Notes: generated from the letters alone by a model not told the origin. Shown: positions 21,809-52,696, counted from the stretch's first letter. The stretch: 64,000 bases of DNA from an uncultured Gammaproteobacteria bacterium (GCA_964515545.1 CAZERI010000001.1:269553-333552); one strand, 5' to 3'. Made by a program: numbers and translations.

Positions 21809-22069
21809 ATCTAGTACGTATGTAGGGATAAGACATAGATTTGTTCTGTGACTCGCTCTTCGCGAGTTTTTTTATCCCAAAATTACTCTTCATTACCACT
21901 TAACTTGTCCGCCTAGAGGCGTGACTAACAAGTAGTAATTCGAACTTTAACAGTCGAAAAGTGGTAGGGAATTTTTTAGATTTCCAAACTTCCCTTTAGC
22001 ATCGCACACGCATTGCTATTTTTTGTTTGGAAATCGACAGCATTTAATGAAGACTATCTTCGTTAAATT

Positions 22070-23538
<1,469 letters not shown>

Positions 23539-23909: not shown

Positions 23910-23982
23910 GGCGCGGTGGTGAAGTGGTTAACACAGCTGTTTGCAGAACAGCCACTCACCGGTTCGAATCCGGTTCGCGCCT
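23910..23982 (+). tRNA. tRNA-Cys (anticodon GCA)
   Basis: GGCGCGG/TCGCGCC acceptor with G7-U66, a 3-bp D-stem, GCTGT-TTGCAGA-ACAGC anticodon arm (GCA) and ACCGG-TTCGAAT-CCGGT T-arm. Discriminator U73 is the CysRS identity element. Confidence 0.7.
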
Positions 23983-24125
23983 CACTTATAAGGAGGTGGC
24001 TTCAATATTAGGTTCAAATCTGGTAAAATAGCATTTCAGCGTATGGATAGTGGCATATAGTAGATAGAAAAATTCATTAGTTTTTCTCCTATTAGCCATA
24101 AGCTCTATGCTAATAGCACGTCTAA

Positions 24126-24198
24126 GGGTTGCTAGTTCATCGGTTAGAACGCTGTCCTGATAAGACAGAGGTGCGTGGTTCGATTCCACGGCAACCCA
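24126..24198 (+). tRNA. tRNA-Ile (anticodon GAT)
   Basis: GGGTTGC/GCAACCC acceptor, GTTC-ATCGGTTA-GAAC D-arm, CTGTC-CTGATAA-GACAG anticodon arm (GAU) and CGTGG-TTCGATT-CCACG T-arm. Discriminator A. Confidence 0.85.
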
Positions 24199-24298
24199 CA
24201 ACACACAACTTACTCATCTCATCGTTTGTTCCTGAGGTTCTATCCTTCAATTTTCCTACACATTTTTTACAGTATTTTAGTTAAATTGTTAGCTTATC

Positions 24299-24541: not shown

Positions 24542-26027
24542 GAGATGATTTGAGTTTAAGCCAGAAATCTTCCTGACGGCAGAGATTTTTACTATCCTTT
24601 TTATCCTCTAAAATTTGTTTGACAGCCTCTTCTAAAAAGATTGTATTTTGTGAGCCTTTAGCTAAAAGTAATGTCTCTTTTGGCAGATTATCCTTTAGGT
24701 ATTCACCCGCACGGAATGAAGAATCAAACCAGCGGACTTCTTTAAAGCCTTTTTCATTCTCTTGGATAATCGGGAGGACAAATTCTCGGGTAAGAGGTCC
24801 AACGAGGTAAAGGTAATCAACGATTCCGATAAGCTTTTTTGCTACTTCTTCATGCTCGATACGGGATTCGTTACCTAGTTCACGCATATCTCCAAAAAGA
24901 AATGACACGTCGCGATTTGTTTCTTTCTTTAAGATATCTACAAGATCCAAGAAGGCAGAAATTGACGCTTTCGAGGCATTATAAGAAGAGTCGATGATAA
25001 TACTTTTATTGATACCTTTGAATATGCTTGCTCTTCCTTTAGGAGGCTGATAATTCTTCTCAAGAGATACTTTTATTTGTTCGAGTGTGAGTCCTGCTTC
25101 TAGCCCGACTAAAATGCTGGCAGCAAATACTTCCCGATATTCTTGCGGTAAAATATGGTTAGTAAAGGTAAGATTTATCTCTTCACGTTTGGAGCTATTT
25201 TTAACAAAAAAATCAAAAGAAGATCCTTTAAGGCTGACTCGGTAAAGACCATACGAAATATCGCACGTACTTTTTGTGCCAAAAGTGAGGAGCTTACTGG
25301 ATAATTCTTTTTTTTCAATCTGATTAGTTATATTCGTATCATCAGCGTTATAAATACCTACTTTGCAATGAGACTTAGTAATAATTTTTGTATCCTCCCG
25401 AGCAATATTTGTTATCACTTCTTGCAGTCTATCCTTCTGTGATAGTCCTTCTTTTCTTACTGTTTTATCAAATTGGAGCGAATGAGTAGCAGAGACATTT
25501 AAAGAAATAGCAATATCAGGTTCAAGAATTGATAATAGGTAATCCATGTTTTTTGGTGGATCAGGTTCATCTATTCCCATTTCCGCGACTAAGTATTTGG
25601 TATCTTTGAGGAAATGTAGGTTGAGTGGAGACTTGGCCAGCATCTTAAGCCAGTCTAAAGGTGAGTAGTTTTCAGGCTGCATACCAAGGATACCAAGGGG
25701 AATTCCAGTCTCGGAATTTCCGACAGCCTTAGTTGGGAAGTAATCATTGAGGACTGCTTCAATTGCTTTGCGTGTAGAAGATTTACCTACTGATCCAGCA
25801 ATACCGATAATAGTAGGGTTATGCTTATTTAACGCTTTTTTTGCAAAATAGCGGAGGTAGGAGAGAGTAGATGTAGTAAGCTGGCGTCTCACATAACTAT
25901 TATAGCAAGCGGTTTCATTAAAGCCTACTGAGACTATGCATAAACCTCCATAGTACTTACTTGGCCTCGGTTTACCTGACCGACTATGATTTGATGAGGG
26001 TGTCTTTGATTTGGTAAGTTTAGCCAT
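24531..26027 (-). CDS. Mur ligase family protein (MurF-like UDP-MurNAc-peptide ligase)
   Basis: P-loop IIGIAGSVGKSSTRKAIEAVL and the Mur-ligase C-terminal DSSYNASKASISAFLDL motif. The N-terminal ~70 aa of the ORF overlap the upstream gene and are probably not translated. Confidence 0.65.
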   Translation of the reverse strand: MAKLTKSKTPSSNHSRSGKPRPSKYYGGLCIVSVGFNETACYNSYVRRQLTTSTLSYLRYFAKKALNKHNPTIIGIAGSVGKSSTRKAIEAVLNDYFPTKAVGNSETGIPLGILGMQPENYSPLDWLKMLAKSPLNLHFLKDTKYLVAEMGIDEPDPPKNMDYLLSILEPDIAISLNVSATHSLQFDKTVRKEGLSQKDRLQEVITNIAREDTKIITKSHCKVGIYNADDTNITNQIEKKELSSKLLTFGTKSTCDISYGLYRVSLKGSSFDFFVKNSSKREEINLTFTNHILPQEYREVFAASILVGLEAGLTLEQIKVSLEKNYQPPKGRASIFKGINKSIIIDSSYNASKASISAFLDLVDILKKETNRDVSFLFGDMRELGNESRIEHEEVAKKLIGIVDYLYLVGPLTREFVLPIIQENEKGFKEVRWFDSSFRAGEYLKDNLPKETLLLAKGSQNTIFLEEAVKQILEDKKDSKNLCRQEDFWLKLKSSPKS

Positions 26028-27205
26028 TCCTGAACATGATTCTGAGACATAGCTAGATCAGCAATTTGTCGTGATTTATCCATATTTTTAGTTTGAATAA
26101 GGAGAGTATGAGTATTTGAAAAAGCAGCTCCTACTTCTGAATGATTGGCTAGGTTCTGTGATATGGGGTAATGAGCCTGGTCTAAGACCTCTTTCAAGCG
26201 TTCAGGATTGATAAATTCATCATCGTCAATACTCGATCGGGGAATGCGTAATTTGAATGTAGTATTGGGGCCAAGTCTGTACATAATACCCAGTGGTCTT
26301 GGATCAGTCGAGAGGCTGATAATAGATGGATTTTGAGTCTTTACTGCTTCTTTATAATCAATTCCACGTTTTGCATATTCTATTCTTACCTGCTCCATAG
26401 CTTCCTCCCAATCATTAAGATAATTATGCAAGGAGTCAGGCATATTAGTAAGCTGGTCTTCAGAGATTGCTGGCATACCAGATGCATAAATTTTTGCTGC
26501 ATTGTAGCGTCTTTTATCAAAATAGCGTGGATTTACACCTGTCTCACTTGAATACCCACCATTGGAATGTCTGAAGTAGCCAACTGGTAATACTTTTCCT
26601 AGTCTGTGATCAAGTGCAACGGCTCCTATCCATTTATTTGTTAGCTCCATAGCATCTTGTGAAGAGTAGATAGTCTGCATAACTGGATCTTCATGGACGA
26701 TATGCTCACCAGCGAAATGTCCCGCCCCAGAGCCATCTTTGGCTGGTTCCTCGCCATTTGCTAACTGTCTTGCGTATTCATCTGTAATTCCACACCCCAC
26801 AGGGCTCTTCTTTGGAACGAAACGCTCACCGTCATAATGTCCAAAAAATCCAACACTATTTACCCCCTGGCTATTCATAATCCCAGCAAATTGTTTTTTA
26901 AACTGTTCATCCCCACCAGCACCCAGGGCTCTGACTGAAGCAGTTCGTACACCAACCCTTTCCGGAATCCAGACTCGAGCATCTCCGCAGAGAACAATAG
27001 CCGTTAGCTTCCCAAGTCTTTTATTTTCTTGCCATTCAGCAAGATTTTCCTGTACTTTTGGTTGTCTATTTTGCTCTACTAAAAAATCAGGAGAGACTTC
27101 CAAGATAGGCTCTATATAAGGTTTGGCTTCAATATGTGGATCAGGGAATTCTGATCGATGATTACTTGCTCTTTCAGTCATAGTAGGATCTGGTAGTTGG
27201 GGCAT
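25934..27205 (-). CDS. Hypothetical protein (423 aa)
   Basis: Long ORF with normal composition and no recognisable motifs. Confidence 0.5.
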   Translation of the reverse strand: MPQLPDPTMTERASNHRSEFPDPHIEAKPYIEPILEVSPDFLVEQNRQPKVQENLAEWQENKRLGKLTAIVLCGDARVWIPERVGVRTASVRALGAGGDEQFKKQFAGIMNSQGVNSVGFFGHYDGERFVPKKSPVGCGITDEYARQLANGEEPAKDGSGAGHFAGEHIVHEDPVMQTIYSSQDAMELTNKWIGAVALDHRLGKVLPVGYFRHSNGGYSSETGVNPRYFDKRRYNAAKIYASGMPAISEDQLTNMPDSLHNYLNDWEEAMEQVRIEYAKRGIDYKEAVKTQNPSIISLSTDPRPLGIMYRLGPNTTFKLRIPRSSIDDDEFINPERLKEVLDQAHYPISQNLANHSEVGAAFSNTHTLLIQTKNMDKSRQIADLAMSQNHVQEWLNLPNQRHPHQIIVGQVNRGQVSTMEVYA

Positions 27206-27276: not shown

Positions 27277-28650
27277 ATGAAAGTTACAACTCTTCATGAG
27301 GCGCAATCTTATTTAGAGTCCTACATCAGGCCGAGTGTCTTTGAACGAGTCCAGGAAGATAGCCACCTTAAAGATCCGTTGGATCGGATGCGAGTTCTTT
27401 TACGCCTTCTAGGTAATCCTGAGAAAAAATTCAAATCAGTCCAGGTAAGTGGAACTTCAGGAAAAGGCTCCACAGCCTATCTTCTGGCCAATATAATAGG
27501 CAAAGCCGGATACAAAACTGGCTTTGCTACATCTCCTCACCTGCAGAGTATTAATGAGCGTATGCAGATTACTATGCGAAAAATTAGTGATGATGCACTT
27601 ATCTCATTAGTTAACGAGCTTATCCCGCAAGTCGAAGCAATCAAAAAGATGCCAGAAGGAGAACCATCATACTTTGAACTTCTCACAGCACTTGCATTTA
27701 TGCATTTTGCCCACGAGAAAGTTGATATCGCTGTTGTTGAAGTAGGACTTGAAGGCAAATATGATGCTACGAATGTACTAGAGCCTTTAGTTGTGATACT
27801 TACCAATATTTCTAAAGATCATACTGATATGCTTGGTACGACAGAGGGTGAAATTGCTGAAGAGGCATTTAGTATTATGAGAAAAAATGAGAGAGGAGAA
27901 ACTCCTCTTGTAATTACAGGAGTGAAGCAGGATTTTCTCCGTAAGAAGCTTCTTAAGAAAGCTGTTTCCCTTCATGAAGACGTAAAAATACTAGGACGAG
28001 ATTTTACGTACTCTCTGCAGAAGAAGACGAAAAACGGAGCAAAGTTTATGTTTTCAGAAGAGGGGGTATCACTATCTGATCTGGAAGTTCGATTACGGGG
28101 GGAATACCAGGTGGAAAATGCAAGTCTGGCTTTGGCTGCTTGTATTAGTTTAGAACGTGTAGGTTTTACTATTCCTGAAGAAGCTAAGCGTCAAGGATTG
28201 AGTACTGCTTTTTTCCCGGGAAGGTTTGAAGTTATTGTCAGCGGGAAGCAACTTATTATATTAGACGGTGCACATAATGAAGCAAAGATGAAAGCTTTCT
28301 TGCAGGCGCTTCAAGCTTATTATCCTCACCAGAAAAAGGTATTTATTGTCGGATTTAAGAGAAATAAAGATACAGCATCTATGATACGTGAGTTATTTGC
28401 GATAGATAATGCAAAATTTATTTTTACTGAATTTAGTAATACAGGTGACTATCTCCGCAGCAATTCGATGAGTCTAGATCAACTGAGATCAAGTAGTGAA
28501 GAAGCTGGCTCTCAGAGAGAGATAGAGTATATAGCATCTGTCCCTGATGCATTTGCTAAGGCGCAGGTGAGTAATAAAGAACTCATTATCGTCACAGGGT
28601 CACTCTATTTGGTTGGAGAGATGAGAGAATATCTTTTTCCTACTGAGTAG
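27277..28650 (+). CDS. folC: Folylpolyglutamate synthase / dihydrofolate synthase (Mur ligase family)
   Basis: VSGTSGKGSTAYLLANIIGKAGYKTGFATSPHL is the FolC P-loop region. The Mur-ligase C-terminal domain includes DGAHNEAKMKAF. Confidence 0.8.
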   Translation: MKVTTLHEAQSYLESYIRPSVFERVQEDSHLKDPLDRMRVLLRLLGNPEKKFKSVQVSGTSGKGSTAYLLANIIGKAGYKTGFATSPHLQSINERMQITMRKISDDALISLVNELIPQVEAIKKMPEGEPSYFELLTALAFMHFAHEKVDIAVVEVGLEGKYDATNVLEPLVVILTNISKDHTDMLGTTEGEIAEEAFSIMRKNERGETPLVITGVKQDFLRKKLLKKAVSLHEDVKILGRDFTYSLQKKTKNGAKFMFSEEGVSLSDLEVRLRGEYQVENASLALAACISLERVGFTIPEEAKRQGLSTAFFPGRFEVIVSGKQLIILDGAHNEAKMKAFLQALQAYYPHQKKVFIVGFKRNKDTASMIRELFAIDNAKFIFTEFSNTGDYLRSNSMSLDQLRSSSEEAGSQREIEYIASVPDAFAKAQVSNKELIIVTGSLYLVGEMREYLFPTE

Positions 28651-29272
28651 GAACAGGAGAGACAGCAGCAGGTGAGGCAGTTACCGGAGCTTGCGTCCCG
28701 CTAACTACTACCGTTGTTCCTGCTACAGACTTTAGCACACTTTGGGCACCAAGTCCTGGAGAGGTTACTAATGACTTATCCAAAATGGTAATAGGAGTAG
28801 AGGTTGTCGTAGTAGCTGCAGCAGGATAGAAAGTCAGGGTAGCAACTGTTCCTTTCCCTGATTTAGCATCACGAAGATTGGCAGGAGTTATGGCAAAAGT
28901 AATTCTTCCTGTAGTCTGGTTAACTCCACCGACAGGGAGCGTCTGGGCTCCAGGGAAGAAGTCGCCAGGCTTAATACTAACGTTAGTAAGTGCTTTTGGA
29001 TCATAAGCGATTTCAAGCTGAATAGCTCGGACTGAGTCCCCTTTAGTATCAATAAGAATATTCGCAGTAGATGGTGTTCCCCTCATGGCAGTGACAGGAT
29101 TGGGAGACATGCTTAAAATCGTATGACCCGCTACAGGTGTAGGAGTCGCAGCTGCTTTATTAGCTGGTGGAGTGGTAGTTTGGGTTTGCTGCTTGGTAGA
29201 TAACGCAACAAAAACAAGAATAATTGTTAGGATCAAAAGGACGATAATAAGACCGAGGGTTTTTTTTGACAT
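28640..29272 (-). CDS. Small membrane-anchored Thr/Pro-rich surface protein with a single beta-domain (candidate cohesin-like module)
   Basis: N-terminal TM anchor (LGLIIVLLILTIILVFVAL), a T/P/A-rich linker, a ~130-aa beta-rich domain and a Thr-rich tail. It is the last gene of a co-directional block of dockerin-bearing genes. The cohesin assignment is inferred from context, not from motifs. Confidence 0.45.
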   Translation of the reverse strand: MSKKTLGLIIVLLILTIILVFVALSTKQQTQTTTPPANKAAATPTPVAGHTILSMSPNPVTAMRGTPSTANILIDTKGDSVRAIQLEIAYDPKALTNVSIKPGDFFPGAQTLPVGGVNQTTGRITFAITPANLRDAKSGKGTVATLTFYPAAATTTTSTPITILDKSLVTSPGLGAQSVLKSVAGTTVVVSGTQAPVTASPAAVSPVPTQ

Positions 29273-29335
29273 AGCTTTAATTAACTCGTTATAAATTCAT
29301 TATTTCTAAAAGAGTTTCCTTTGTCAAATTTCATT

Positions 29336-31195
29336 TCAATCTCCATGCTGTACTGAGAAGTCTCTGAGAAAGAGATTTAAATCGGATTGATTGACATTGC
29401 CGTCGTCAGTAAGGTCTGCCAGTAATTTTTGGGCTGGATTACATGACACAGGAGGTAGGAAGTCGCTATAACAGTCAGCGATCAAGTTGTAGTCAAGAAT
29501 GTTAAGTGTGTTGTCATTATTAGTATCTCCAGTGACAAGGGTTACTGGGTCGAGTTGGAGTTGCGTCTGGTTAGTAGTGATAACTTTGATCCCGGGAAGT
29601 GTTTGGTGGAGATAGTTATTACTCCAGATTTTCATATTGTAACTTCCTCCTGCTATATCTCCAAAATCTATTGATCCTTCAAAATTTCCTTTAACAGTGT
29701 TATAGCTGACTGTTCCTGACTTAGTCATAACTTCCTCACCAGCTTGATTGAGAACCTGGACAGTTACGTTCCTGGTGCCTCTTAACGGATTCTGATTACT
29801 CAGGCACTTGGCGGGATCACGAGGATTAGCCTGACAGGGAGCAGGATTTGGGTTGGCACTGTCTCCGCTTGCTCCGATACCATGGAGAAGGAGAGCTACG
29901 CTGACTGTAAGGTTATTAGGAGTAGGGGTAGAGGTAGGACTTGGAGGAATAGGTGTTGCAGTCGGCCTTGGTGTAGGTGTAGCGGTAGGTAAAGGCGTAG
30001 GAGTTGGAGTAGCAGTTGGGATGGGAGTGGGAGTCATAGTAGGAGAAGGCGTAGGCGTTAAGGTCGGGGTAGGGGTAAAAGTAGGGGTTGGAATTGGCTT
30101 TGTTGGGGTTGGGGTAGGTGTGAGGCTAACTCCAAAATTCCTATCAGTAATTGTATTCCCATGAGAGATGATAACAGAATGAGTAGCTTGGGCAGGTGCT
30201 GTCTGAGTCCACCCTGAGTTAAGAGTTAACTTTACCTCATATGCTCCATCACAATCTCCTGTGAAGGTATAGTGTCCTGATGCATCAGTAGTCGTGGTAG
30301 CTATAGTGGAGTGAGTGGTAGCGTTGGTGAGCTGGACAGTCCAGCCTGCAAGTCCTGTTTCAGTTGTTTCACGTTGTCCATTATTACTTACATCATCAAA
30401 AACATCTCCACTGATAGTTCCTTTGCCTATATCTTGAGCAATCTGCTCATAAATAGTGGTAAGGGCAGTACTTGTTGGAGCGAAATAGTACATTCCTCCT
30501 GATGACGTTGCGATGTCTTTGAGGAGCTGGTCATTCAAGCTATCCCCAAAGCCTATGGTAAAGAAAGTAACATTTTGATTTTTTGAGACTTCTTGGGCTG
30601 CTGCGAGAGCTTTTTTCGCAGATAGTGCTTTGCCGGCTGTATCGGTAGCAGCTTTAGGTATTCCTATATATTCAGTAGCTCCTCCATCAGTAAGAAGTAC
30701 TGCGACATTTTTGACTCCATTTCTATCATGTGCGTTTAAATTTGCTGCTGCAGTTCTGATACCGCACTCAACACAGGTATCACCATATGCAGTAATAGCA
30801 TTGATCGCTGTATGAAGCCTAGTTAAATCGCCGGTCTGGGATTGGCTGGTCGTAGTGAGACTTACTGAACTGAAGACAGTAAGGCTTGCCTGATGAAGCG
30901 GTGTTGCTGTACGTTTCTGGAGGATAGTAACAAAAGCATTTGCAGCATTTTTTGCACTTGTTAGACGAGGTGTTGTGTCAGTTTTGCTCGTAGCGCTCGT
31001 CATACTTCCTGAACGATCAAAAATAATCATAGTATCTGTCGGCTGATCCGCAGTGCATACTTGCGGAGAGGTAGCTGCCCGCTGACGAATATCCTGCTGT
31101 TTTTGTGCTAAGAAGAGAACAAGAGGCAGAGAAATTACTAAAAAGATAATTGTGATAATAATAAGAAGACGCTTCTTACTTTTAATAAATTCCAT
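29336..31195 (-). CDS. Secreted modular protein: signal/TM, vWA (MIDAS), SdrD-B/Cna-B-like domain, Pro/Thr linker, conserved C-terminal beta-domain with dockerin-type tandem Ca-binding repeats
   Basis: vWA carries DRSGSM (DxSxS MIDAS) ...LLTDGG...TIGFGD. The B-type domain is [31 protein letters not shown]. The linker is a (PT)n run. The C-terminus carries [13 protein letters not shown] and [20 protein letters not shown], matching the dockerin DxNxDGxVNxxD loop-helix repeats. Confidence 0.7.
29880..30120 (-). repeat. Coding Pro/Thr-rich low-complexity linker ((PT)n-like)
   Basis: Translates to [56 protein letters not shown]. The antisense strand produces the spurious GV-rich ORF 29853-30164. 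Confidence 0.8.
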
Positions 31196-31218
31196 AGAAC
31201 AGTTGTATTGGTTTTTCC

Positions 31219-33165
31219 TTAATCACCAAACTGTACTGATAATTCTCGATCGAAGAGGTTATTATCAAACTGATTGACGTCACCATCATCTGTTAAGTCG
31301 GTAGCGGTTTTCTTATCATTATCGCAAGCAACTGGAGCTAAGTAGTCAGAGTAGCAGTCAATAATCATATTGTAATCGAGGATATCCAATTTATTATCTG
31401 AATTCGTATCGCCTGAAATAAGTGATACTGTCGGTAAGACATTATTTTTATTTGCAGATATCGTAATAAGTCCTGGAATGAGTCTATGCAGATAGTGGCT
31501 GCTGGCTACCTTGAGACTATATTTTCCTGCAGGGAATGTCGTGCCTAAATCAAAGCTACCTTTATAAGAACCGGAAGTTGGGTCGTAGACAATAGTTGAA
31601 TTGATTTGTTTGACTTGAGTATTATTGGTATCAGTAACAAAGATCGTTGCATCATGTGATGTATGCAGCGGGTTCTTATTACTAAGTGTAGAGCTCGTTA
31701 AGTTAGCATTATCTCCAGCACTGCCTATCCCATGAAGAAGGACATTGAGAGAAAGTGTCGTATTTTGGGGAGTATAGTCTGCAGAAATTTGACAGTTGGA
31801 TGCAGAGTTGCCTACATCGCCTGCGTAGGAGGCTCTAATAGTATCGGTGAAGTCTTCAGGACTTGCTGCAGGAACTGAAATTACCACACTAGCTATACCA
31901 TTAGCATTAGTATTTGAGGTGGTGGCAGATAATTGGGAAATAGTATTTCCGCTCCAGGTAATACTTTTGCCTGATAGTGGATTGCCCGCACTATCTTTTA
32001 GTGTCACAGAAAGTGCTTGAGGAGTATTAGTAAGAGTGACAGAAGGTGGGGAACACACAAGACTTGTTGTAATAGGGTGCTGAGTGACCCCAAAGTCCTT
32101 GTCGGATACAGTGTCTCCTTGAGCAACAGTTAGTGACTGATAATCAGGATTCGTAGGGGTGGTAATATCCCAGTTTGTTTGTAGTGTTACTGAGGCCTTG
32201 TAGTTACCATCACAGATTCCGCTAAAAGTATAAGTTCCTTGTGAATTTGTAGTAGTTGTGGCGCTTACCGCATTTGTTGAAGTATTAGTCAGGGTGACTT
32301 TCCAGCCGGAGAGGCCTGTCTCTGATGCGTCTTGTATTTTATTTCTATTATCATCGTTATAAACTGTTCCACTGATGGTACCTTTACCTATCTCTTCAGC
32401 GATCTGCTTATAAATCGCTGTTAATGTAGCTCCATCGGGAGCAAAGTAAAATTTTCCTCCTGTTTGGGTAGCGATATCTATAAGTAATTTATCATTGATA
32501 CTGTCACCAAAACCGATAGTGTAGAAAGCCATGTTGTATTTATTATGGACATCAACTGCAGCTGCAAGGGCTTTTTGATCGGAAAGTGTTTTGTTAGCTG
32601 TTGAGCCTGAAGCAGGTCCGCCAATATACTGCTGGGCACCTCCATCTGTTAGCATGACGGCTATATTTTTGACACCGCCACGTTCTTTCGCTTTAAAGTC
32701 GGCTTCAGCTTTCCTGATAGCACACTCGATACACGTGGACCCATTTGCAGTTAAGTTATTAATTGCGGTTTTAACGTTGGTTAGATTTTGGGTGAGCGAC
32801 TGAACGACCTTAACACTTTCCTCTGAGCTAATAGTGGTGACACTGACTTCGTGAAGAGGAGTCTGGGTACGTTTGGCAAGGATATCTAAGAATGCGCTTG
32901 AGGCTTCTTTAGCTCGCTTCATTCGAGAGGTACTATCAGTATCGCTGGTGGCCTTCGTCATGCTCCCTGACTGATCAAAGATCATCATAGTATCTGTCGG
33001 CTGGTCTGCAGTACATACCTGCTCTGCAGCATGCTGGCGTACATCCTGCTGCTGCTGTCCTAAATAGAGAGTCAGAGGAACTGCTGCTACTATTAATAAG
33101 AGGGTTAAAAGACCGACCATTCGTCTATCTTTCATTATTTTCTGCCACATAGATACATGCTGCAA
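31219..33165 (-). CDS. Secreted modular protein, paralog of 29336-31195: vWA, SdrD-B-like, Ig-like/beta middle region and C-terminal dockerin-type module
   Basis: N-terminal vWA is near-identical in pattern to the downstream paralog ([19 protein letters not shown]...). The C-terminus carries [21 protein letters not shown] and [16 protein letters not shown]. The start may be an internal Met (MKDRR or MVGLL). Confidence 0.7.
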
Positions 33166-33241
33166 AAAGCAGTGCTACTTACAGACTAATAGAGAGGGGT
33201 GGGCTCTGTCAATAAACACTCAGGAAAATTTTTAAGCGTTA

Positions 33242-36200
33242 CTAATCTCCAAGCTGGATAGAGAAGTCTCTGAGGAATAAATTTATGTCTGCTTGATTGA
33301 CTTTCCCGTCATCATTAAGGTCAGCACGTTGCTTTTCTTGAGCGTCACAAGAGAAGTTAGGCAGGAAATCGCTGTAACAGTCTGCAATAAAATTAAAATC
33401 AAGAATGTTGAGTGAGTTTGTATTAGTTGTGTCTCCGGTAATAAGTGCTACTGCAGGAAGCTGAAGGCGCGTTTGGTCCGTTGTAAGACTTTTAAATCCA
33501 GGAACGAGTTGGTGGAGGTAATTGTCACTCCAAATAGATATCGTATAGTCGCCATCTGGAATATCTTTTACATTTATTGATCCCTCAAAATCACCTTTAG
33601 ACGAATTATAGGTAATTGTTCCAAAGCTGGTAGCAGCTTCTTTTCCGGTTTCATCAAAGAACTGAATCATAACATTCCGTGTCTTTCTTTGAGGATTCTG
33701 ATTACTGAGACACTTAGTGGGGTCACGAGGGTTTTCTTGGCAAGGGGATGGGTTTGGGTTGATCGTATCACCGCTTGCTCCAATTCCATGCAGGAATACA
33801 CTAACATCTACAGTAAGGCCATTAGGCATAGGTGTTGGAGTTGGCTGTCCAGGTGCAAAGGTAGGGGTTGGCTGTGTCGAAGTCACCACTGGAGTAGCGG
33901 TCGGTATCAAGGTTACCTGGGAGGTAATTGTAGGTTTGGGAGTACTACTTGGCTTAGGAGTTGCAGTAGGTTTAGGAGTAGATGTAGCATTTGGCTTTGC
34001 TGTTGGTGTAGGTGCAGATGTCACTGAAGGGTATGGGTCATCAGGGTCAACTGATGGTACTTCAGAGCCGGGATCTTCTGGTGCAGGATAGGAATCGTCA
34101 GGATCAGGATAGTTACTTGGAGGAGAAGGATTGGTCGGAGTACTTCCCTCTCCGCTTGGATCCTGACAGGAAGAATTAACTGCTCTCTCCAGAGTTCTAT
34201 TAAGTCCAACTACTCCAGTATTGATAGAGAGAGACCAATAGGTGTTGGTAGTAAAGCACTGAGCCTTAAATGAGACACTGTATCCTGTTCCATACGGTAG
34301 CTTTGAGGTTATGTAATATCCATCACTATTTGTTGTTGTCTCAGTTATGACAGAGCCATCTCTTGAGACAGTGACAGATACGTTCGCAGCTGAATAACCC
34401 TTTTGATCTTTTACCCGACCGTAGATTACTCCCGTATTGGAAGAGGTATTTTTATCCAAATAAATATACTGTGTAGGCATTGAAGGTTGGGAAAGGACAA
34501 TGGTTTTTGTCTGATAAGCATATCCTTCTGCCTCTGCCTTAACTGATATAGATTTTCCTCCGGTAAAGGTATAGCTGTGACAGCCCGTATTGTCAGTAGT
34601 AACTGTAGAGTATCCCGTAATTGAGATTTTTGAGTCTTTAAGTGCAGTTGCTACACTTCCGTTGCTATAGACACAAATTTTAACTGTTGAATTAAATGAA
34701 GAGTTTGATGGGAGAGGAAGGGTGAGTATTTCGGTTCTATCAATCGATCCTATGGTTACTGTCTTTTTGACATTACTGGGATTCTTCCCAGGTTCAAGCA
34801 CAGCGAAGGCCTGTATTTCGACAGTAGTATTTGACTGTACTTTAAATACTCGTTGAGTCCCATTTCCTGTTCCACTTACTTCGCAGTCAATTGTTTTGCC
34901 TCCGATAATAATTGGTCTTTGATAACAGACATTGACACCAACCTGCGAAAGAGGAGCACTGAATCCTACGGGGGATTGAACCTTTACGGTTAAATTTACT
35001 TTAGGAACCAGGGTAGTAAGCGATATTGTTATCGTCTTGTTTGAAGTAGTCATAGTTGTAGTTTGGGTAGCTGTTTGAAAACCTGATTTTGAGACAGTAA
35101 TGGTGACAGGAGCATTGGTTAGGAGTGAGACAGTTCTCTCTCCTGTACTACTGGTACTGCCACTTTGACACCTTGAGGCATCGGGTTGGACGTCAACATA
35201 GCAGACAGATACAGTTGCTCCTGAAATAGGGGCTGAAGTACCCGTAGTAGCGAGCGCTTTTATAGTCAGATTAGCCTTACTAGATGTTGAGGTAGTAGCT
35301 AATACGACTTGAACAGTTTTGGCTGTTGTACCAAGTGTGGTAGTCGTACTTCCACGAAGCGTTGTTCCCTTTGTGGCTGTTATAGTTACAGCTTGATTTG
35401 CTCCTGCAGTGAGTGTTACTTGTCCACTTGAGTTAGTTGTCCCATGCGGGCAGGTAGCATTCCCACCCCCAGTTGTATTTGCACCACTGGCACAGATGGT
35501 AACAGTAGCACCACTAACAGGGGAACTTGAGCTACTTCCGCCGGTTACTGCTTTTACTGTCACAGAGACATTGCGAATAGGTGTAGGAGTTGCTCCTTTA
35601 GTGAGGCGAAATGATGCTGTACCTTGACCATTGGATCCAAGTGTCACTGAAAGTGGATTGGCAGATGTTGAAGTATAGCCACTAGGGACGGTAATACTTA
35701 CCGAGTATTTACTACCCGCCAGTCCGCTAAATGCATAATTGCCTGTACTTGCGGTTGTCGTTGAAGTTGTGTTGCCATTGCCTGTAGGCCCAGTGTTTGT
35801 GATCTTTACAGTCACTCCACTGACGCCCACTGAATTTCCTTGAGAATCCTGATAGTAAACTTTCCCGGTTACCGATTTTGAGCTAGTGTCTTTAGTAAGA
35901 CGAAATGAGGCCGTGCCCTGACCATTTGAAGGAAGGTTAACAGTTTGATTATTACTGGACACAGTATATCCTGGTGGTCCAACAATAGAGACGTTGTAAC
36001 GTGTTCCAACTAATCCAGTAAAATTAAAGTTGCCTGAGCTATTAGTAGTTTGTTGGGAAGTAGCGCTAGAATCAAGATTTTTTATGGTCACTGTGACACC
36101 TGCAAATCCCTGAGTAACATTATTAGAGCCGAGGGTATAGACAAGTCCTTTAATAGATTTAGAGGGTTTGGGAGTAGGTGTTGGAGTTGGAAGAGAGATT

Positions 36201-36931
36201 TTTTTTACCTGAAAATTTATAGTTGATTTTCCGCCTGATGTAATAGTAGTGTATTGTGGATTGCTTGATATAAGTGTATAGCCAGAAGCTCCTTTCATAG
36301 AAACTGAATATGATGATCCAACGAGGCCATCAAAAAGGTAATTACCACTGCCATTGGTGCTAGTTGTAGCTGTACTTCCCGTACTGCGGTTAGTTATTGT
36401 TATTCCAACATTTGCTACGCCTGCTGTAACATTCGAAGCTGTGTAATAAACTCTCCCTTCAATGGCTTGGGTTTTGGAGGATGATCCGCCACCGCTATTA
36501 TTACCACCCCCAGTACCTGGTGAAGTTGCATTCTTACTGATAATAAAGTTGACTCTACTTGTACCGCTAGAAAATGTGGTATAGATGTTATTTGACAAGA
36601 TCGTATATCCAGGTATAGGGCTCAGAAAGACTCTGTAGGTCTGTGATCCTGCTGCAGAGAGGCCTCCTATATAATAGCTCCCACTTACCAGTGAGCCTGT
36701 TGCGGTAGAGCCACTACTTGTATTAGTAATTGTTACTGTTCCGCCTCCCGTATAGGCTCCTCCACCAGAAATTGAAACCGATCCTGCGATTACTTTACTT
36801 GCGGCCAATGCTTTGCTATTTGGGTTTGATCCGAGGGGAAAAAGAATAACTGATAGTACTGCTAAAATCAGAGGCAGAACGATACTGCGACTTCGAGTCC
36901 TTCTAAGGATTTCTTTAAGAGCAGCTACCAT
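33242..36931 (-). CDS. Giant secreted protein: N-terminal TM, at least 5 carboxypeptidase-regulatory-like/Cna-B-type beta-sandwich repeats plus other Ig-like repeats, long Pro/Thr/Ser linker and a C-terminal module ~75% identical to that of 29336-31195, ending in the dockerin-type repeats
   Basis: Repeated G(R/K)VYY...GVxxVxVTIxN...T..ttT...G.Y.F.GL..G..Y.V units. The C-terminus carries GDTTNTNSLNILDFNFIADCY and [26 protein letters not shown]. The start was placed at the internal Met (MVAALKEIL..., 36931); the ORF as called extends to 37102. Confidence 0.65.
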   Translation of the reverse strand: MVAALKEILRRTRSRSIVLPLILAVLSVILFPLGSNPNSKALAASKVIAGSVSISGGGAYTGGGTVTITNTSSGSTATGSLVSGSYYIGGLSAAGSQTYRVFLSPIPGYTILSNNIYTTFSSGTSRVNFIISKNATSPGTGGGNNSGGGSSSKTQAIEGRVYYTASNVTAGVANVGITITNRSTGSTATTSTNGSGNYLFDGLVGSSYSVSMKGASGYTLISSNPQYTTITSGGKSTINFQVKKISLPTPTPTPKPSKSIKGLVYTLGSNNVTQGFAGVTVTIKNLDSSATSQQTTNSSGNFNFTGLVGTRYNVSIVGPPGYTVSSNNQTVNLPSNGQGTASFRLTKDTSSKSVTGKVYYQDSQGNSVGVSGVTVKITNTGPTGNGNTTSTTTASTGNYAFSGLAGSKYSVSITVPSGYTSTSANPLSVTLGSNGQGTASFRLTKGATPTPIRNVSVTVKAVTGGSSSSSPVSGATVTICASGANTTGGGNATCPHGTTNSSGQVTLTAGANQAVTITATKGTTLRGSTTTTLGTTAKTVQVVLATTSTSSKANLTIKALATTGTSAPISGATVSVCYVDVQPDASRCQSGSTSSTGERTVSLLTNAPVTITVSKSGFQTATQTTTMTTSNKTITISLTTLVPKVNLTVKVQSPVGFSAPLSQVGVNVCYQRPIIIGGKTIDCEVSGTGNGTQRVFKVQSNTTVEIQAFAVLEPGKNPSNVKKTVTIGSIDRTEILTLPLPSNSSFNSTVKICVYSNGSVATALKDSKISITGYSTVTTDNTGCHSYTFTGGKSISVKAEAEGYAYQTKTIVLSQPSMPTQYIYLDKNTSSNTGVIYGRVKDQKGYSAANVSVTVSRDGSVITETTTNSDGYYITSKLPYGTGYSVSFKAQCFTTNTYWSLSINTGVVGLNRTLERAVNSSCQDPSGEGSTPTNPSPPSNYPDPDDSYPAPEDPGSEVPSVDPDDPYPSVTSAPTPTAKPNATSTPKPTATPKPSSTPKPTITSQVTLIPTATPVVTSTQPTPTFAPGQPTPTPMPNGLTVDVSVFLHGIGASGDTINPNPSPCQENPRDPTKCLSNQNPQRKTRNVMIQFFDETGKEAATSFGTITYNSSKGDFEGSINVKDIPDGDYTISIWSDNYLHQLVPGFKSLTTDQTRLQLPAVALITGDTTNTNSLNILDFNFIADCYSDFLPNFSCDAQEKQRADLNDDGKVNQADINLFLRDFSIQLGD

Positions 36932-37058
36932 AGATACAAGGTACGGAAAATTCCAGCACCTCTTTAAGCGTAATCGAGGTAGGTAGTCGCTGTCAACAAA
37001 GCATCTCAAAAAAGTGCCTTCCCAAACCCTATTTTGTCTGATACACTCTATAGATTGT

Positions 37059-37628
37059 ATGGTCCTATCAGACAGAGACATCAAAAAATATCTCAAATCC
37101 AAGCAAATCGTCGTTAAGCCAGCCCCAAATTTAACAGAACAATTAGGCAGTAATTCACTTGATCTTCGACTCGGTAACAGTTTTCGTATTTTTGATCACA
37201 GTAAATTCCCCTTTATTGATCCTTTTGAAAAGAATACCTCAAGTGATGTCACGCGTGAGATTGTGATTGGGAACAAAGAGCGCTTTATCATCCAACCCGG
37301 AGATTTTGTCCTCGGTACGACAATGGAATTTATTGAGATCCCTGATACACTGGTCGGAAGCTTAGAGGGAAGATCGAGTATTGGTAGACTTGGCGTTATT
37401 ATCCATTCAACTGCAGCAAGTGTAGAGTGTGGTTTTCGAGGACATATCACTTTAGAGCTTGCCAATATGGGGAAAATGCCAGTAGCGCTCTATCCTGGTA
37501 TGCGCATCTGCTCCATATCTTTTGCTGAATTAAGTTCTCCGGCAGAAGTGCCATACTATAAAAAGAAGAATGCCAAATATGTCGGACAGTTAGGCCCAGG
37601 AGAGTCCAAAATCCACAAAGAGCGATGA
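37059..37628 (+). CDS. dcd: dCTP deaminase
   Basis: Collinear with E. coli Dcd: SLDLRLGNSFRIF, GSLEGRSSIGRLGV, VECGFRGHITLEL. Start chosen at MVLSDRDI. The stop overlaps the tmk start (ATGA). Confidence 0.85.
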   Translation: MVLSDRDIKKYLKSKQIVVKPAPNLTEQLGSNSLDLRLGNSFRIFDHSKFPFIDPFEKNTSSDVTREIVIGNKERFIIQPGDFVLGTTMEFIEIPDTLVGSLEGRSSIGRLGVIIHSTAASVECGFRGHITLELANMGKMPVALYPGMRICSISFAELSSPAEVPYYKKKNAKYVGQLGPGESKIHKER

Positions 37629-38314
37629 AGCATCATATAGAATTTGATTTGGAACTTCGTAAGAATCCCTACAGAGGGCTTTATATTGTTCTTGAAGGGA
37701 CAGAAGCCTCAGGTAAATCGACTCAGCTTAAAGAACTCGCATCATACTTTAAAAAACAAGGAAAAGAGGTGGTAACTACTCGTGAACCACGTAAAGAAGG
37801 AATAGTAGGAGACATGGTTCATAAGATTCTTTTGGGTGATTTAAAACTCAATCCGATAGCTTTCCAGTATCTCTTTTCTGCTGATCGCATGTTAAATCAC
37901 ACTGATGTCATAGAGCCTGCTCTCAAACAAGGAAAGGTAGTCATCTCTGATAGAAATTTCTGGTCGGCAATTGTTTACGGTATATTGGACAGATCTGAGA
38001 AGGGTTTTAAAAAAGCATCAATGGATCAGTTGCTAGTCGCTCAATCAATTCTTTCTTTTTATCACCAATTTATTGTCCCTGATTTTACATTTTATCTCAA
38101 AATCCCACTTGAAGTCTCATTAAAAAGACTTGGAGGGAAATCAGAAATGAAAGAAATTTATGAAGATGAAGATAAAATCCGTATGATTATTAAAGGCTAT
38201 AATTTTGTCGCAAAAAATTTCTCTGGGGAAATTACTCCCATTGATGGGACTCAATCTATTGAACAGGTTACAAAAAGTATGATAGAAATAATTAGCAAAG
38301 ATTCAAAAAAATGA
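37625..38314 (+). CDS. tmk: Thymidylate kinase
   Basis: GLYIVLEGTEASGKSTQ is the P-loop, the DRNFWSAIVYG DRY/DRX-type motif is present and a lid region follows. Stop/start overlap with the next gene is ATGA. Confidence 0.85.
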   Translation: MKHHIEFDLELRKNPYRGLYIVLEGTEASGKSTQLKELASYFKKQGKEVVTTREPRKEGIVGDMVHKILLGDLKLNPIAFQYLFSADRMLNHTDVIEPALKQGKVVISDRNFWSAIVYGILDRSEKGFKKASMDQLLVAQSILSFYHQFIVPDFTFYLKIPLEVSLKRLGGKSEMKEIYEDEDKIRMIIKGYNFVAKNFSGEITPIDGTQSIEQVTKSMIEIISKDSKK

Positions 38315-38850
38315 TTTTAGGACCGAAAATATTACTCCAATTAGTTAAAGACCAAAAATTAGTTGAGAATCTCTCTGAGAGAGAATTAACCAATCCAGAA
38401 GGAGCAGGATTTGATCTGAGACTGGGGGAAGTCTATAAAATTTCAGGCGATGCGTTCCTCGGTGAGACAGAGCGCAAGACTGCCGATATTGAACTTGTGC
38501 AGGAGTATAAAGAGGGAGAAAAACGAACTATTGTTATTAAGCCCGGAGATTTTTTTCTCATCAAAACAATAGAATCAGTCAACTGTCCTGAGAATTTAAC
38601 AGCCCACATTTATCCTCGTTCGACGACATTTAGGAGCGGTATCTATGTGCGCACGACACAAGTTGCACCTGGGTACTCAGGTGGATTAACATTTGCATTA
38701 AAAAATGAAGGGCCAATCGATGTTACTATCGAGATGGGAGCACGTGTCGTTCATATCCAGTTCACGGAAGTTGCAGGTGGCGGGAGTAAGTATCGCGGAC
38801 AGTGGCAGGGTGGACGCGTCTCGGCTCTGAAAAAAGAAAAACAGGTCTAA
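38311..38850 (+). CDS. Second Dcd/dUTPase-superfamily protein (dCTP deaminase-like, possible dUTPase or bifunctional enzyme)
   Basis: Motifs GFDLRLGEVYKI, PRSTTFRSGI and PGYSGGLTFALKNEG parallel the Dcd motifs but with a shorter N-terminus and a different C-terminus. Confidence 0.65.
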   Translation: MILGPKILLQLVKDQKLVENLSERELTNPEGAGFDLRLGEVYKISGDAFLGETERKTADIELVQEYKEGEKRTIVIKPGDFFLIKTIESVNCPENLTAHIYPRSTTFRSGIYVRTTQVAPGYSGGLTFALKNEGPIDVTIEMGARVVHIQFTEVAGGGSKYRGQWQGGRVSALKKEKQV

Positions 38851-48041: not shown

Positions 48042-48124
48042 TCATAACAGAATGGCTTAGTTCTATTTTAGGATCATTTGGGAAGGGAAGTCAATTACAT
48101 ATTGAAGACTAATTCACTTCCACG

Positions 48125-48153
48125 AAAAACCCCGCCTTGTTGGGGGCGGGGCT
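48125..48153 (-). terminator. GC-rich rho-independent terminator (bidirectional hairpin) at the left edge of the high-GC island
   Basis: Minus strand reads GCCCCGCC-CCCAACAAG-GCGGGG followed by TTTTT. It lies just downstream of the stop of the minus-strand gene 48185-49003. Confidence 0.6.
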
Positions 48154-48184
48154 TTCGTCTCTGTCTCGCGTGAGCGAGGTTGAG

Positions 48185-49003
48185 TTACTTTGTGATGGTC
48201 AGCGTTGTGAAGACGCCGACCAGCGTTTCGGTTTCGGATTGTCCCCCGGAGGGGACGCCGGCGATGAGGTATGTCCCCTCATCCATGCCCATGAGGGCGA
48301 TGGTTTGGGATTGCCCAGCCGGTATCATGGCAACAGTGAGCGGGTCGTTGACCGCGTCCCGTCCCGTGATAGTCGCCGTCAGAGCGTCAGGAGTCGTGCC
48401 ATCGGGAACGCGCAGAAGTACCACGCGATGTGTGATGGTGCCCGTGTTGGTAAGTGTGACCAAGACGACGTCGTGTTCGACGAGTGGCTTGCGCCGTGTC
48501 GAGATTGAGTCATCACTCATTTTGATGGTTAGCTTGGTCGACGTAAGTCCGTCAGGGACGGTCAGGTCGTCCAGTATGGTGATGCCGTTGATCATCGACG
48601 TATCTGAAGTCAGTGCGAATGCCGTGTTGGTGAACGAATATTTTCCCCAAAAGCCTTTGAGGGCTACGGGGACAACAACATTGCCGTATTGGTCGATGGT
48701 GATGTCCTCGGTTTGGAGAATCTTACCGCCGACGGCGTAAAATGCCTCTTCTAGGCCGTAAAAGACCTGCTGCTGCAGGTCTGGCGTGAGCATTTCCCAC
48801 GCACGATGCCGGACATCCGGCTTGGATGAGCCAGCTCGTTTCAGGAACAAGGTCAGTGTTGAGGTCGCCTGCGAGGCGACCTCAGCAGGGGCGAGATTCG
48901 TTGCCGGTGATCCTGCATCCATAGCGCGAGCCACAGAAAACGACGACACGAACGAAAGTGAAAATGCGATGGCCACGACAGTGGCCACGATCCGACGGAA
49001 CAT
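48185..49003 (-). CDS. Hypothetical secreted protein encoded in the high-GC island
   Basis: Start at MFRRIVATVVAIAFSLSFVSSFSVARA (a Sec signal) is preceded by AGGAGA 8 nt upstream. GC3-rich codon usage is unlike the rest of the window. The extended ORF start at 49108 was rejected. Confidence 0.5.
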   Translation of the reverse strand: MFRRIVATVVAIAFSLSFVSSFSVARAMDAGSPATNLAPAEVASQATSTLTLFLKRAGSSKPDVRHRAWEMLTPDLQQQVFYGLEEAFYAVGGKILQTEDITIDQYGNVVVPVALKGFWGKYSFTNTAFALTSDTSMINGITILDDLTVPDGLTSTKLTIKMSDDSISTRRKPLVEHDVVLVTLTNTGTITHRVVLLRVPDGTTPDALTATITGRDAVNDPLTVAMIPAGQSQTIALMGMDEGTYLIAGVPSGGQSETETLVGVFTTLTITK

Positions 49004-49059
49004 TATGTTTTCTCCTTTGCCCGTCTTTCCGGGCTGTCGTACTGAACAAAATTGTTCAA

Positions 49060-49140
49060 GATGGAAAGCTACCGGTAGGGCGGGACAAGGTGACCGGTAG
49101 CTTGGCACTTAGGAGATGCTAAGCACCAAGCTGCCGGTCA
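49060..49140. promoter_or_regulatory. Cluster of palindromic operator-like sites (AGCTACCGGTAG; GACCGGTAGCTTGGCACTTAGG-AGAT-GCTAAGCACCAAGCTGCCGGTC) upstream of the island's secreted-protein gene
   Basis: CTACCGGTAG is a perfect 10-bp palindrome. A second ACCGGTAGCT copy and a 19-bp imperfect inverted repeat lie within 70 bp. Confidence 0.4.
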
Positions 49141-49494: not shown

Positions 49495-49526
49495 CGAAAG
49501 AAAAAACGTAGGGTGGAAAGGCCACC
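49495..49526 (-). terminator. Rho-independent terminator for the Tat-signal gene (GGGTGG-CCTTT-CCACCC + TACGTTTTTTCTTT)
   Basis: A second GC-rich hairpin (GCGCCCTCCGCCGAGTC-AGA-CTCGGCGGGGGCGC) lies immediately distal. Confidence 0.55.
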
Positions 49527-49538
49527 CACCTTGGTTGG

Positions 49539-52671: not shown

Positions 52672-52696
52672 AAGCTTTGTATTAGTATAATAGTAC

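Follow-up and report, generated by a model that had tools for sequence, protein, structure and literature searches.

A candidate X-dockerin/cohesin locus for non-covalent display of adhesins in Patescibacteria

Introduction

How might a wall-poor bacterium with a tiny genome hold large adhesins at its surface? Patescibacteria, or candidate phyla radiation (CPR) bacteria, are thought to rely on attachment to other cells, and the molecules that mediate attachment are largely unknown outside a few Saccharibacteria. The question is raised here by a stretch of 64,000 nucleotides (CAZERI010000001.1:269553-333552 of assembly GCA_964515545.1, deposited as an uncultured Gammaproteobacteria bacterium), hereafter the window. 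A first-pass annotation of the window had described three genes for secreted proteins with dockerin-like tails, followed on the same strand by a gene for a small beta-domain protein, as a candidate surface assembly of the cohesin-dockerin kind. The four open reading frames (ORFs) are found on the minus strand at exactly the positions proposed, and we call them genes A, B, C and D. Our analyses leave little doubt that D is a cohesin and that A, B and C end in an X module followed by a dockerin (X-Doc). We propose that the four genes probably form an operon for the non-covalent display of adhesins, in which the X-Docs of A, B and C bind the cohesin of D and are anchored by it.

Results

Protein D is a cohesin on a predicted membrane anchor

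The product of gene D had been described as a membrane-anchored protein of 210 residues with a Thr/Pro linker and a single beta domain, for which a search with the cohesin family was suggested. In that search D matched Pfam Cohesin (PF00963) over residues 78 to 179 with 45.6 bits (cut-off 24.1; E = 1.1e-11). We collected 116 homologues of D, of 137 to 243 residues and mostly of about 190 to 220, nearly all of which have a precomputed match to PF00963. Where a source is named, it is Candidatus Levybacteria or the Patescibacteria group, and the label 'cohesin protein' is already attached to a few of them.

An AlphaFold2 model of D based on 83 homologues (predicted local distance difference test score, pLDDT, 88.9) is composed of an N-terminal helix (residues 3 to 25), a disordered Thr/Pro linker (26 to 50) and a beta sandwich (51 to 191), in agreement with the description above. 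The top 50 Foldseek matches of this model in the PDB are cohesins only, the best being 6kgd_A (E = 1.4e-8, template modelling (TM) score 0.80), and the profile of the 83 homologues likewise retrieved only cohesins among PDB sequences. Type II cohesins carry beta-flaps and, between strands 6 and 7, an alpha-helix, both of which are extra relative to type I cohesins. In the model of D, DSSP assigned no helix within residues 51 to 191, and superposition gave TM scores of 0.70-0.80 to type I cohesins versus 0.52-0.63 to type II cohesins. Because it lacks the helix and superposes better on type I structures, we did not classify D as a type II cohesin. An HMM (hidden Markov model) of the beta domain of D detected no second copy of it in the window.

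The N-terminal helix of D is conserved in an uneven manner. Residues T5, L8, I9, L12, T16, L19 and A23, which form a stripe along it, are 90-100% conserved in the 83 homologues, as opposed to 31-60% for the residues in between. As a single, heptad-like face of the helix is conserved, we consider that it is a retained membrane anchor rather than a cleaved signal peptide. The conservation of this face also suggests helix-helix packing, through oligomerization or with a membrane partner.

The tails of A, B and C are X module-dockerin dyads

Proteins A, B and C share a C-terminal sequence of about 64 residues that comprises two loop-helix segments; the segments quoted in the first-pass annotation are those found at the end of C. 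An HMM of the three tails identified no further copy in the six frames of the window (next best match at E = 1.3). Since it detects these three only, the tails represent paralogous modules and not chance resemblances. Dockerins consist of two segments of about 22 residues, each made of a Ca-binding loop with Asp or Asn at positions 1, 3, 5, 9 and 12 and of a helix that follows it. Asp or Asn residues occupy the Ca-ligand positions in five of the six loops of A, B and C, provided that Thr is accepted at position 3 of loop 2 in B and C. Analysed in isolation, the tails of C, B and A scored 27.9, 24.9 and 21.0 bits, respectively, with Pfam Dockerin_1 (PF00404; cut-off 22.9).

A search for homologues of the C-terminal module gave 47 sequences, and an alignment of 48 tails was built. 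Dockerin_1 matches were found at E <= 0.01 in 47 of the 48, with a best value of 4.2e-11, and the top 21 matches of the family tail profile among PDB sequences are all dockerins. Conservation of the Ca-coordinating Asp/Asn residues had been set beforehand as a test of the dockerin assignment, and these residues are kept across the 48 homologues. Of the ten loop-ligand positions, six are either invariant or conserved to at least 90% (D4, D15, D41, D45 and D52, with D44 counted although it is not itself a ligand), and the remaining ones are canonical at the majority level in the consensus. The invariant residues of the family are G3, D15, C22, C32, D41, D45, V48, D52, N54, F56 and R58. The NLFLRE motif of the second helix and a pair of Cys residues in the linker between the segments are also conserved; the total number of Cys is even in A, B and C. 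Weak EF-hand matches were obtained for a few of the 48 tails. With respect to other functions for these C-termini, the possibility of a sorting signal of the type IX secretion system was rejected, as the sole hint was a weak Por_Secre_tail match in the X module of C (E = 0.068), and so was that of a sortase-type signal, as no LPXTG motif was found in A, B or C and no sortase motif in the window.

The first-pass annotation correctly placed the two segments at the extreme C-terminus. It missed that they are immediately preceded in each protein by a beta module of about 125 residues with a LHGIGxxGD...YLHQ signature, so that the conserved C-terminal unit measures about 190 residues. The AlphaFold2 model of the last 193 residues of C (pLDDT 91.7; predicted TM score, pTM, 0.86) shows a beta sandwich, with strands at residues 3 to 131, packed against a dockerin of three helices (model residues 140-149, 161-167 and 177-188). 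Based on the pTM value of this single-chain model, the X module and the dockerin appear to form a rigid two-module unit. The ten best Foldseek matches of the model in the PDB are all type II X module-dockerin (XDoc) dyads, aligned over 186 to 199 columns. They include 2b59_B, 3kcp_A, 4wi0_B, 4fl4_C, 5g5d_B, 4u3s_B, 5k39_B and 5m0y_B, which represent CipA/ScaA, CipB and Acetivibrio cellulolyticus ScaA.

The relationship is also detectable by sequence comparisons. Using phmmer, residues 478 to 615 of C matched the CipA XDoc 2b59_B (E = 3.2e-4), and residues 1107 to 1224 of A matched the A. cellulolyticus ScaA XDoc 4wi0_B (E = 4.6e-4). The match of the X-Doc family profile to 2b59_B has an E value of 7.1e-8, with YTLKISRATYL...GDIVKDNSINLLD aligned over YtvKvKtdkYL...GDinnDnklnilD. 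As both fold and sequence match type II XDocs, the tails are XDoc-type modules rather than the bare type I dockerins of enzymes, and the type I label initially given to them had to be abandoned. Type II XDocs hold cellulosomes on clostridial cells, and the X-Doc dyad of A, B and C is homologous to them.

Dockerin and cohesin genes are paired in related genomes

We analysed the genetic environments of genes coding for relatives of D (29-58% identity), taking one genome per species. This yielded 54 loci, mostly from metagenome-assembled genomes (MAGs) of Levyibacteriota or Patescibacteria, several of which were deposited under other phylum names. In 29 of the 54 loci, the small cohesin gene has a gene for a dockerin-tailed protein as its immediate, co-directional neighbour, and this neighbour is located upstream in 25 of them, as in the window. 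The gaps between these adjacent genes range from 0 to 80 nt across the 29 genomes, while the identity of the cohesins to D falls from 58% to 29%. Within 3 kb of the cohesin gene, dockerin genes have a density of 0.176 per kb, compared with 0.020 per kb at 3 to 10 kb, an 8.6-fold difference. Thus, the pairing of dockerin and cohesin genes is conserved across Levyibacteriota. The first-pass annotation had proposed D as a cohesin-like receptor for the tails; its cohesin identity is established by the analyses above, and the receptor role is supported by this adjacency, from which we infer binding.

In locus L001, found on a 1.08-Mb contig, the anchored cohesin is 48% identical to D and is preceded by two VWA proteins with X-Doc tails, one of which also possesses a cohesin of its own at its N-terminus. 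In about ten relatives, a cohesin at the N-terminus and an X-Doc at the C-terminus are combined in one chain (Table 1); the window encodes no such protein. Such fusions represent Rosetta stone-type evidence for a partnership between the two modules. They are adaptor-like in their organization and could in principle form head-to-tail chains. Genes for dockerin and cohesin proteins alternate (dockerin-cohesin-dockerin-cohesin) in L013, L026 and L030, and in L031 the cohesin gene is isolated, with an X-Doc protein encoded on another contig of the same MAG.

The 58 dockerin proteins encoded next to the cohesins of relatives carry mostly SdrD_B (15 proteins), VWA (13), CarboxypepD_reg (12) and Big_1 (6) domains, along with one subtilase and a few carbohydrate-binding modules (CBMs). 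These proteins match 26 families, and the 25 commonest of them include no glycoside hydrolase. On a larger scale, the X-Doc profile collected 1,293 clusters (50% identity) at E <= 1e-30 from 1.84 billion representative proteins. The X-Doc module is almost always at the extreme C-terminus of these proteins, whose payloads are mainly CBM_4_9, F5/8-type-C, Ig-like, VWA and SdrD_B domains, with few enzymes.

Adhesin-like payloads and two types of export leaders

As first suggested, A, B and C have adhesin-like payloads. Pfam VWA domains were found in C (E = 4.9e-16) and B (E = 3.5e-14), with an intact DxSxS motif of the metal ion-dependent adhesion site (MIDAS), namely DQSGS at residues 64 to 68 of B and DRSGS at residues 60 to 64 of C. 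The downstream segments MLTDGG in B and LLTDGG in C are predicted to contribute the Thr and Asp metal ligands. SdrD_B/Cna-B-like domains are present in all three proteins, after the VWA domain in B and C, and B also has a Big_1 domain. Protein A harbours six CarboxypepD_reg stretches (E = 2.2e-33) and four SdrD_B stretches (E = 1.4e-22). A Pro/Thr stretch of 63 to 70 residues separates the payload from the X-Doc in A and C; it is missing in B, which has the Ig-like Big_1 domain in its place. The best matches among non-dockerin PDB sequences are SdrD (10ps_A, E = 8.9e-9) and UafA (3irp_X, E = 1.8e-6). The NCBIfam model MSCRAMM_SdrD was matched at E = 3e-9, and scores with models of MSCRAMMs (microbial surface components recognizing adhesive matrix molecules) are of about 33 bits, far under the cut-offs of 1700-2500. 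No LPXTG-like motif occurs near any C-terminus of A to D, and all frames of the window lack the TLxTC motif of sortases.

Classical signal peptides with AxA-type sites are predicted in A and many X-Doc relatives (ALA|AS, AYA|A, TFA|Q, AHA|A). The leaders of B and C are of another type, with a hydrophobic stretch of about 20 to 22 residues and then the conserved sequence (A/S)(I/V)PLT(V/L)x(L/I)xxQQQ(D/E)xR(Q/S)(R/H)A. This motif has no Pfam or NCBIfam match and is not a canonical signal peptidase I site. It was found in 27 ORFs close to the cohesin genes of relatives, including L010, L011, L013, L021, L036, L038, L040 and L054, and 20 of these 27 ORFs code for dockerin-tailed proteins. The consensus sequence of the global X-Doc family shows it as well.

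Organization of the locus

At least three sequencing runs yielded the A-B-C-D block with its genes in the same order, and its features are listed in Table 1. The intergenic gaps are about 77 nt (A-B), 23 nt (B-C) and 63 nt (C-D). For gene A, the call of 1229 residues is also present in public assemblies. The true start of B is probably the ATG at 33150, as its orthologues in L001, L010 and L013 start with MWQK or MWQR. Translation in one frame through the tail of C, the spacer and D is interrupted by five stop codons. The C-D spacer contains, just upstream of D, a sigma-70-like promoter-like site (TTGACA-17-AATAAT, 11 of 12 consensus matches, 29327-29299 on the minus strand), which may provide separate or increased expression of the cohesin. 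Across the region, sites of this kind show no enrichment, with 18 found versus 16.8 expected by shuffling.

Table 1. Features of the adhesin locus (positions in the window) and cohesin/X-Doc fusions in related loci (positions in each locus)
Feature	Position	Strand	Description
Gene A	33242-36931	-	1229 aa from the ATG favoured by gene callers; ORF open up to a TTG at 37102
A signal peptide	36797-36931	-	Sec-type, ALA|AS site (translation)
A domain arrays	~34202-36634	-	SdrD_B, CarboxypepD_reg, SpaA prealbumin-like (Pfam)
A Pro/Thr stalk	33824-34012	-	Translation
A X module	33437-33823	-	Beta sandwich, LHGIGASGD...YLHQ; aligns with X modules of B and C
A dockerin	33245-33436	-	Two Ca-loop/helix segments; first loop degenerate, Thr at positions 3 and 5
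Gene B	31219-33165	-	Leader motif, VWA, SdrD_B, Big_1, X module, dockerin
B leader	~33040-33150	-	Conserved motif
B VWA with MIDAS	32404-32991	-	Pfam
B SdrD_B	32152-32376	-	Pfam
B Big_1	31825-32016	-	Pfam
B X module	31414-31788	-	Alignment
B dockerin	31222-31413	-	Pfam Dockerin_1
Gene C	29336-31195	-	Leader motif, VWA, SdrD_B, Pro/Thr stalk, X module, dockerin
C leader	31070-31195	-	Conserved motif
C VWA with MIDAS	30443-31033	-	Pfam
C SdrD_B	30128-30409	-	Pfam
C Pro/Thr stalk	29915-30124	-	70 aa (translation)
C X module	29531-29911	-	Beta sandwich packed against dockerin (AlphaFold2 model, Foldseek, phmmer)
C dockerin	29339-29530	-	Loop 1, helix 1, Cys-pair linker, loop 2, helix 3
C-D spacer	29273-29335	-	63 nt
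Gene D	28640-29272	-	210 aa, membrane-anchored, single cohesin
D transmembrane helix	29198-29266	-	Residues 3-25
D Thr/Pro linker	29123-29197	-	Residues 26-50
D cohesin	28700-29122	-	Residues 51-191, beta domain of 141 aa
D Pro-rich tail	28643-28699	-	Short (translation)
Cohesin + X-Doc fusion	L001 7692-9839		
Cohesin + X-Doc fusion	L010 7974-9947		
Cohesin + X-Doc fusion	L015 6811-8268		
Cohesin + X-Doc fusion	L018 6157-7842		
Cohesin + X-Doc fusion	L026 14220-16331		
Cohesin + X-Doc fusion	L040 6626-7945		
Cohesin + X-Doc fusion	L045 2321-5059		
Cohesin + X-Doc fusion	L050 4079-5377		
Cohesin + X-Doc fusion	L061 2-1303		

Neighbouring genes

Divergently from the adhesin genes, positions 37014-38850 (plus strand) carry a dcd-thymidylate kinase-dcd cluster, with two dCTP deaminase/dUTPase-like paralogues. 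This cluster (dcd-tmk-dcd) is syntenic with the cohesin-dockerin genes in distant relatives, at 2629-4564 in L001 and 3032-4973 in L063. On the other side, a conserved protein of 421-423 residues without a Pfam match is encoded between two genes of the Mur ligase family (25934-27205, minus strand), an arrangement retained in L001 (12460-13725). A 16S rRNA gene is located at 22069-23535, followed by tRNA-Cys and tRNA-Ile genes (23910-24199). As no 23S rRNA gene is present anywhere in the window, the rRNA genes are unlinked.

Other genes of note lie further away. The gene at 44711-47494 (minus strand) codes for a secreted protein of 927 residues that has GTPYG/(YP)n repeats and a single SdrD_B domain but lacks a dockerin; this is another surface protein, retained by other means. 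Two adjacent genes at 50375-51679 and 51631-52785 (minus strand) code for Cys/His-rich paralogues (CYHG, CEHGLGH, CIHGIGHG). A hydrophobic helix is present at the N-terminus of both, and Pfam gave no match for the one scanned. Lastly, an island with a G+C content of 0.535 in a background of about 0.40 extends from about 48100 to 49900 and might have a foreign origin or result from an artefact of assembly or binning. It contains ORFs for a secreted-looking protein of 307 residues (48185-49108, minus strand) and for a protein of 101 residues with a twin-arginine-type signal (49539-49844, minus strand). It has no Pfam or Rfam match and is unrelated to the adhesin genes.

Discussion

A proposed display mechanism

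From the N- to the C-terminus, proteins A, B and C are organized into an export leader, a binding payload, a stalk region (Pro/Thr-rich in A and C), an X module and a Ca-binding dockerin. In the mechanism that we favour, the three proteins would be exported by the Sec machinery and their leaders removed, after which Ca2+ would fold the dockerins. Each X-Doc would then plug into the single cohesin of D on the external side of the membrane. The stalk, close to the membrane, would push the payload out through the envelope, where the VWA/MIDAS and Cna-B-like domains might bind a ligand on a partner cell or in a matrix. A, B and C would compete for one type of socket, which X-Doc proteins encoded elsewhere in the genome would probably share. 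In this arrangement the dockerin would be a functional substitute for the LPXTG/sortase anchor of Gram-positive MSCRAMMs. Binding of the X-Docs by D, the location of the complex at the surface and its role in host attachment are all three inferred.

Several observations weigh against this mechanism, and some of them would fit other explanations. Within the full proteins, all three tails score under the Dockerin_1 cut-off of 22.9 bits (C 22.6, B 19.4, A 15.7), and that of A remains below it even alone (21.0 bits), in keeping with the presence of Thr at two Ca-ligand positions of its first loop. The linker of D is short (about 25 residues), which bears on the position of the socket relative to a wall or S-layer. 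Furthermore, the fold of D implies that an XDoc would be paired with a compact, type I-like cohesin, for which the structural hits contain no solved precedent. This mismatch between a type I-like cohesin and a type II-like dyad would fit the possibility that D is not the cognate socket. The X-Docs of A, B and C would then bind a different cohesin, encoded elsewhere in the genome or present on sister cells or a host, D would take other dockerins, and the adjacency of the genes would reflect a shared island of surface proteins. The same explanation would account for the 25 of 54 related loci that have no adjacent dockerin gene, for the very large size of the X-Doc family, whose genes also occur away from cohesin genes, and for the two small cohesin paralogues per locus in L013, L026 and L030, which imply specificity groups. 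We nevertheless consider it unlikely, as D is the single detectable cohesin in the window, and as same-strand gaps of 0-80 nt are maintained in 29 genomes over a wide range of cohesin identities, with dockerin genes locally enriched.

The leaders of B and C raise another issue. They consist of a hydrophobic stretch of about 22 residues and the conserved PLT..QQQ(D/E)xR(Q/S)(R/H)A sequence with no canonical AxA site, so that N-terminal tethering is possible, which would alter the topology of the complex. The occurrence of the motif in many dockerin-tailed ORFs and in the global consensus suggests a function beyond Sec targeting. A, B and C might thus be anchored by uncleaved leaders, and the X-Doc/cohesin contact would then serve as a cross-link, either by looping back to the cell's own membrane or by bridging to cohesins on neighbouring cells, in cell-cell cohesion or a surface lattice. 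The ordinary cleavable signal peptides of A and of many X-Doc relatives indicate that an N-terminal anchor is not general to X-Doc proteins, and A and C share their payload-stalk-anchor order with wall-anchored adhesins, in which the anchor is C-terminal. For these reasons we give this possibility a low probability. It is less probable still that the tails act without any cohesin, as Ca-dependent stabilizing modules, as carbohydrate- or wall-binding modules or as export or sorting tags; D would then be a small surface protein of cohesin fold with no relation to them. Many dockerins and cohesins outside cellulosomes lack a demonstrated partner, according to PMC9012536 (citing Peer et al. 2009), and the weak EF-hand and Por_Secre_tail matches mentioned above would be in line with such roles. 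However, all the solved homologues returned for the X-Doc dyad bind cohesins, most of them having been crystallized with one, and the conserved gene pairing and the cohesin/X-Doc fusions are hard to explain without an interaction. Display of A, B and C on the cohesin of D therefore remains the reading that we prefer.

Comparison with known systems

Type II XDoc/cohesin complexes anchor cellulosomes to the cells in Clostridium thermocellum and A. cellulolyticus (PMC5141474). As in the locus described here, the CipA/ScaA XDocs that interact with SdbA, OlpB and Orf2p (2b59, 3kcp, 5g5d, 5k39, 4u3s) are C-terminal, rigid dyads of an X module and a two-segment dockerin. The two systems also share the principle of a cohesin borne by a cell-envelope protein, with cell attachment and not enzyme assembly as the outcome. 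They differ in several respects. D has one cohesin on an N-terminal transmembrane helix rather than in a protein with S-layer homology domains, and in the model this cohesin is compact, free of helices and closer to type I. The X-Docs of A, B and C are borne by adhesins and not by a multi-cohesin scaffoldin, and they have a Cys pair between the dockerin segments. Lastly, glycoside hydrolases are absent, and the host belongs to Patescibacteria.

The mechanically strong adhesion complex of Ruminococcus flavefaciens, in which the XMod-Doc of CttA is bound by the ScaE cohesin (CohE) (PMC4266597), is the closest in logic, with a single-cohesin, cell-anchored protein that holds the XMod-Doc of a non-enzymatic binding protein under load. 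The CttA XDoc is not among the structural hits returned for the X-Doc of C, and we therefore liken the locus to these type III modules in logic. ScaE is covalently attached to the wall by sortase. In contrast, D has a transmembrane helix and no LPXTG motif, and the two carbohydrate-binding modules of CttA are replaced by VWA/MIDAS and Cna-B-like domains in the proteins studied here.

PMC9012536 (citing Peer et al. 2009) describes non-cellulosomal cohesins and dockerins as widespread, including in Archaeoglobus fulgidus and anaerobic methanotrophic (ANME) archaea. Like those of the window, they belong to non-cellulolytic hosts, are associated with adhesion-type domains and have been proposed to function in surface assemblies or cell-cell contact. 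The reports covered there are mostly domain censuses without a cognate pair, whereas a specific operon is conserved here across a phylum-level lineage. In the epibiotic Southlakia epibionticum, the dockerin-domain envelope protein SEML1_0315 is essential by transposon sequencing and was proposed to be involved in host adhesion or glycan targeting (PMC10633639). It is likewise a Patescibacteria dockerin protein of the envelope, for which that study describes neither a cohesin partner nor an operon; we liken it to A, B and C by its description only.

Gram-positive MSCRAMMs and pilus-tip adhesins such as SdrD and UafA have a layout similar to that of the proteins studied here, with an N-terminal ligand-binding region, a stalk of B-type/Cna-B domains, a low-complexity spacer and a C-terminal anchor. 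Sortase-anchored MSCRAMMs differ in having an LPXTG motif, which is absent here, as is a sortase motif from the window. The anchoring that we propose would be non-covalent and exchangeable and would depend on Ca. We thus rejected the possibility that A, B and C are themselves sortase-anchored MSCRAMMs, given the lack of a C-terminal LPXTG and their scores far below the MSCRAMM cut-offs. A cellulosome was also rejected, as the window has one cohesin, in the 210-residue protein D, and no multi-cohesin scaffoldin, and the payloads are VWA, SdrD_B, CarboxypepD_reg and Big_1 domains with no glycoside hydrolase. We found no publication on such an operon or on a cohesin partner in CPR bacteria, nor one that connects cohesins or dockerins with Levybacteria or Microgenomates in this way, although Peer et al. 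2009 may list a similar arrangement. The principle is not new: the domains are within reach of standard HMMs, and some homologues are already automatically annotated as cohesin or dockerin proteins.

Significance

The locus offers a concrete candidate receptor-ligand pair, with one small anchored cohesin and three adhesins equipped with defined plug modules. If the pair binds, it would explain how large adhesins are retained by a wall-poor organism without a sortase seen in the window. Recombinant X-Doc or cohesin probes could then be used to label or capture uncultivated Levybacteria and to find their binding partners. Binding would also carry the type II XDoc anchoring principle, including the mechanical strength that it is known to have in R. 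flavefaciens (PMC4266597), over from the breakdown of fibres to the adhesion of cells.

More speculatively, X-dockerin/cohesin pairs might represent a general and exchangeable mode of surface display in Levyibacteriota and perhaps other Patescibacteria, a generalization that is possible and that we hold tentatively. One transmembrane socket, possibly oligomeric through the conserved face of its helix, would receive a large, fast-evolving repertoire of X-Doc proteins (adhesins, lectins and a few enzymes) with a lineage-specific export leader, and fusions would allow head-to-tail chains. This repertoire, rather than pili or sortase substrates, would set the target of attachment, be it a partner cell or a substrate, in these ultra-small bacteria. 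The main interest of the locus is that it provides a testable attachment mechanism for an uncultivated and probably partner-dependent lineage.

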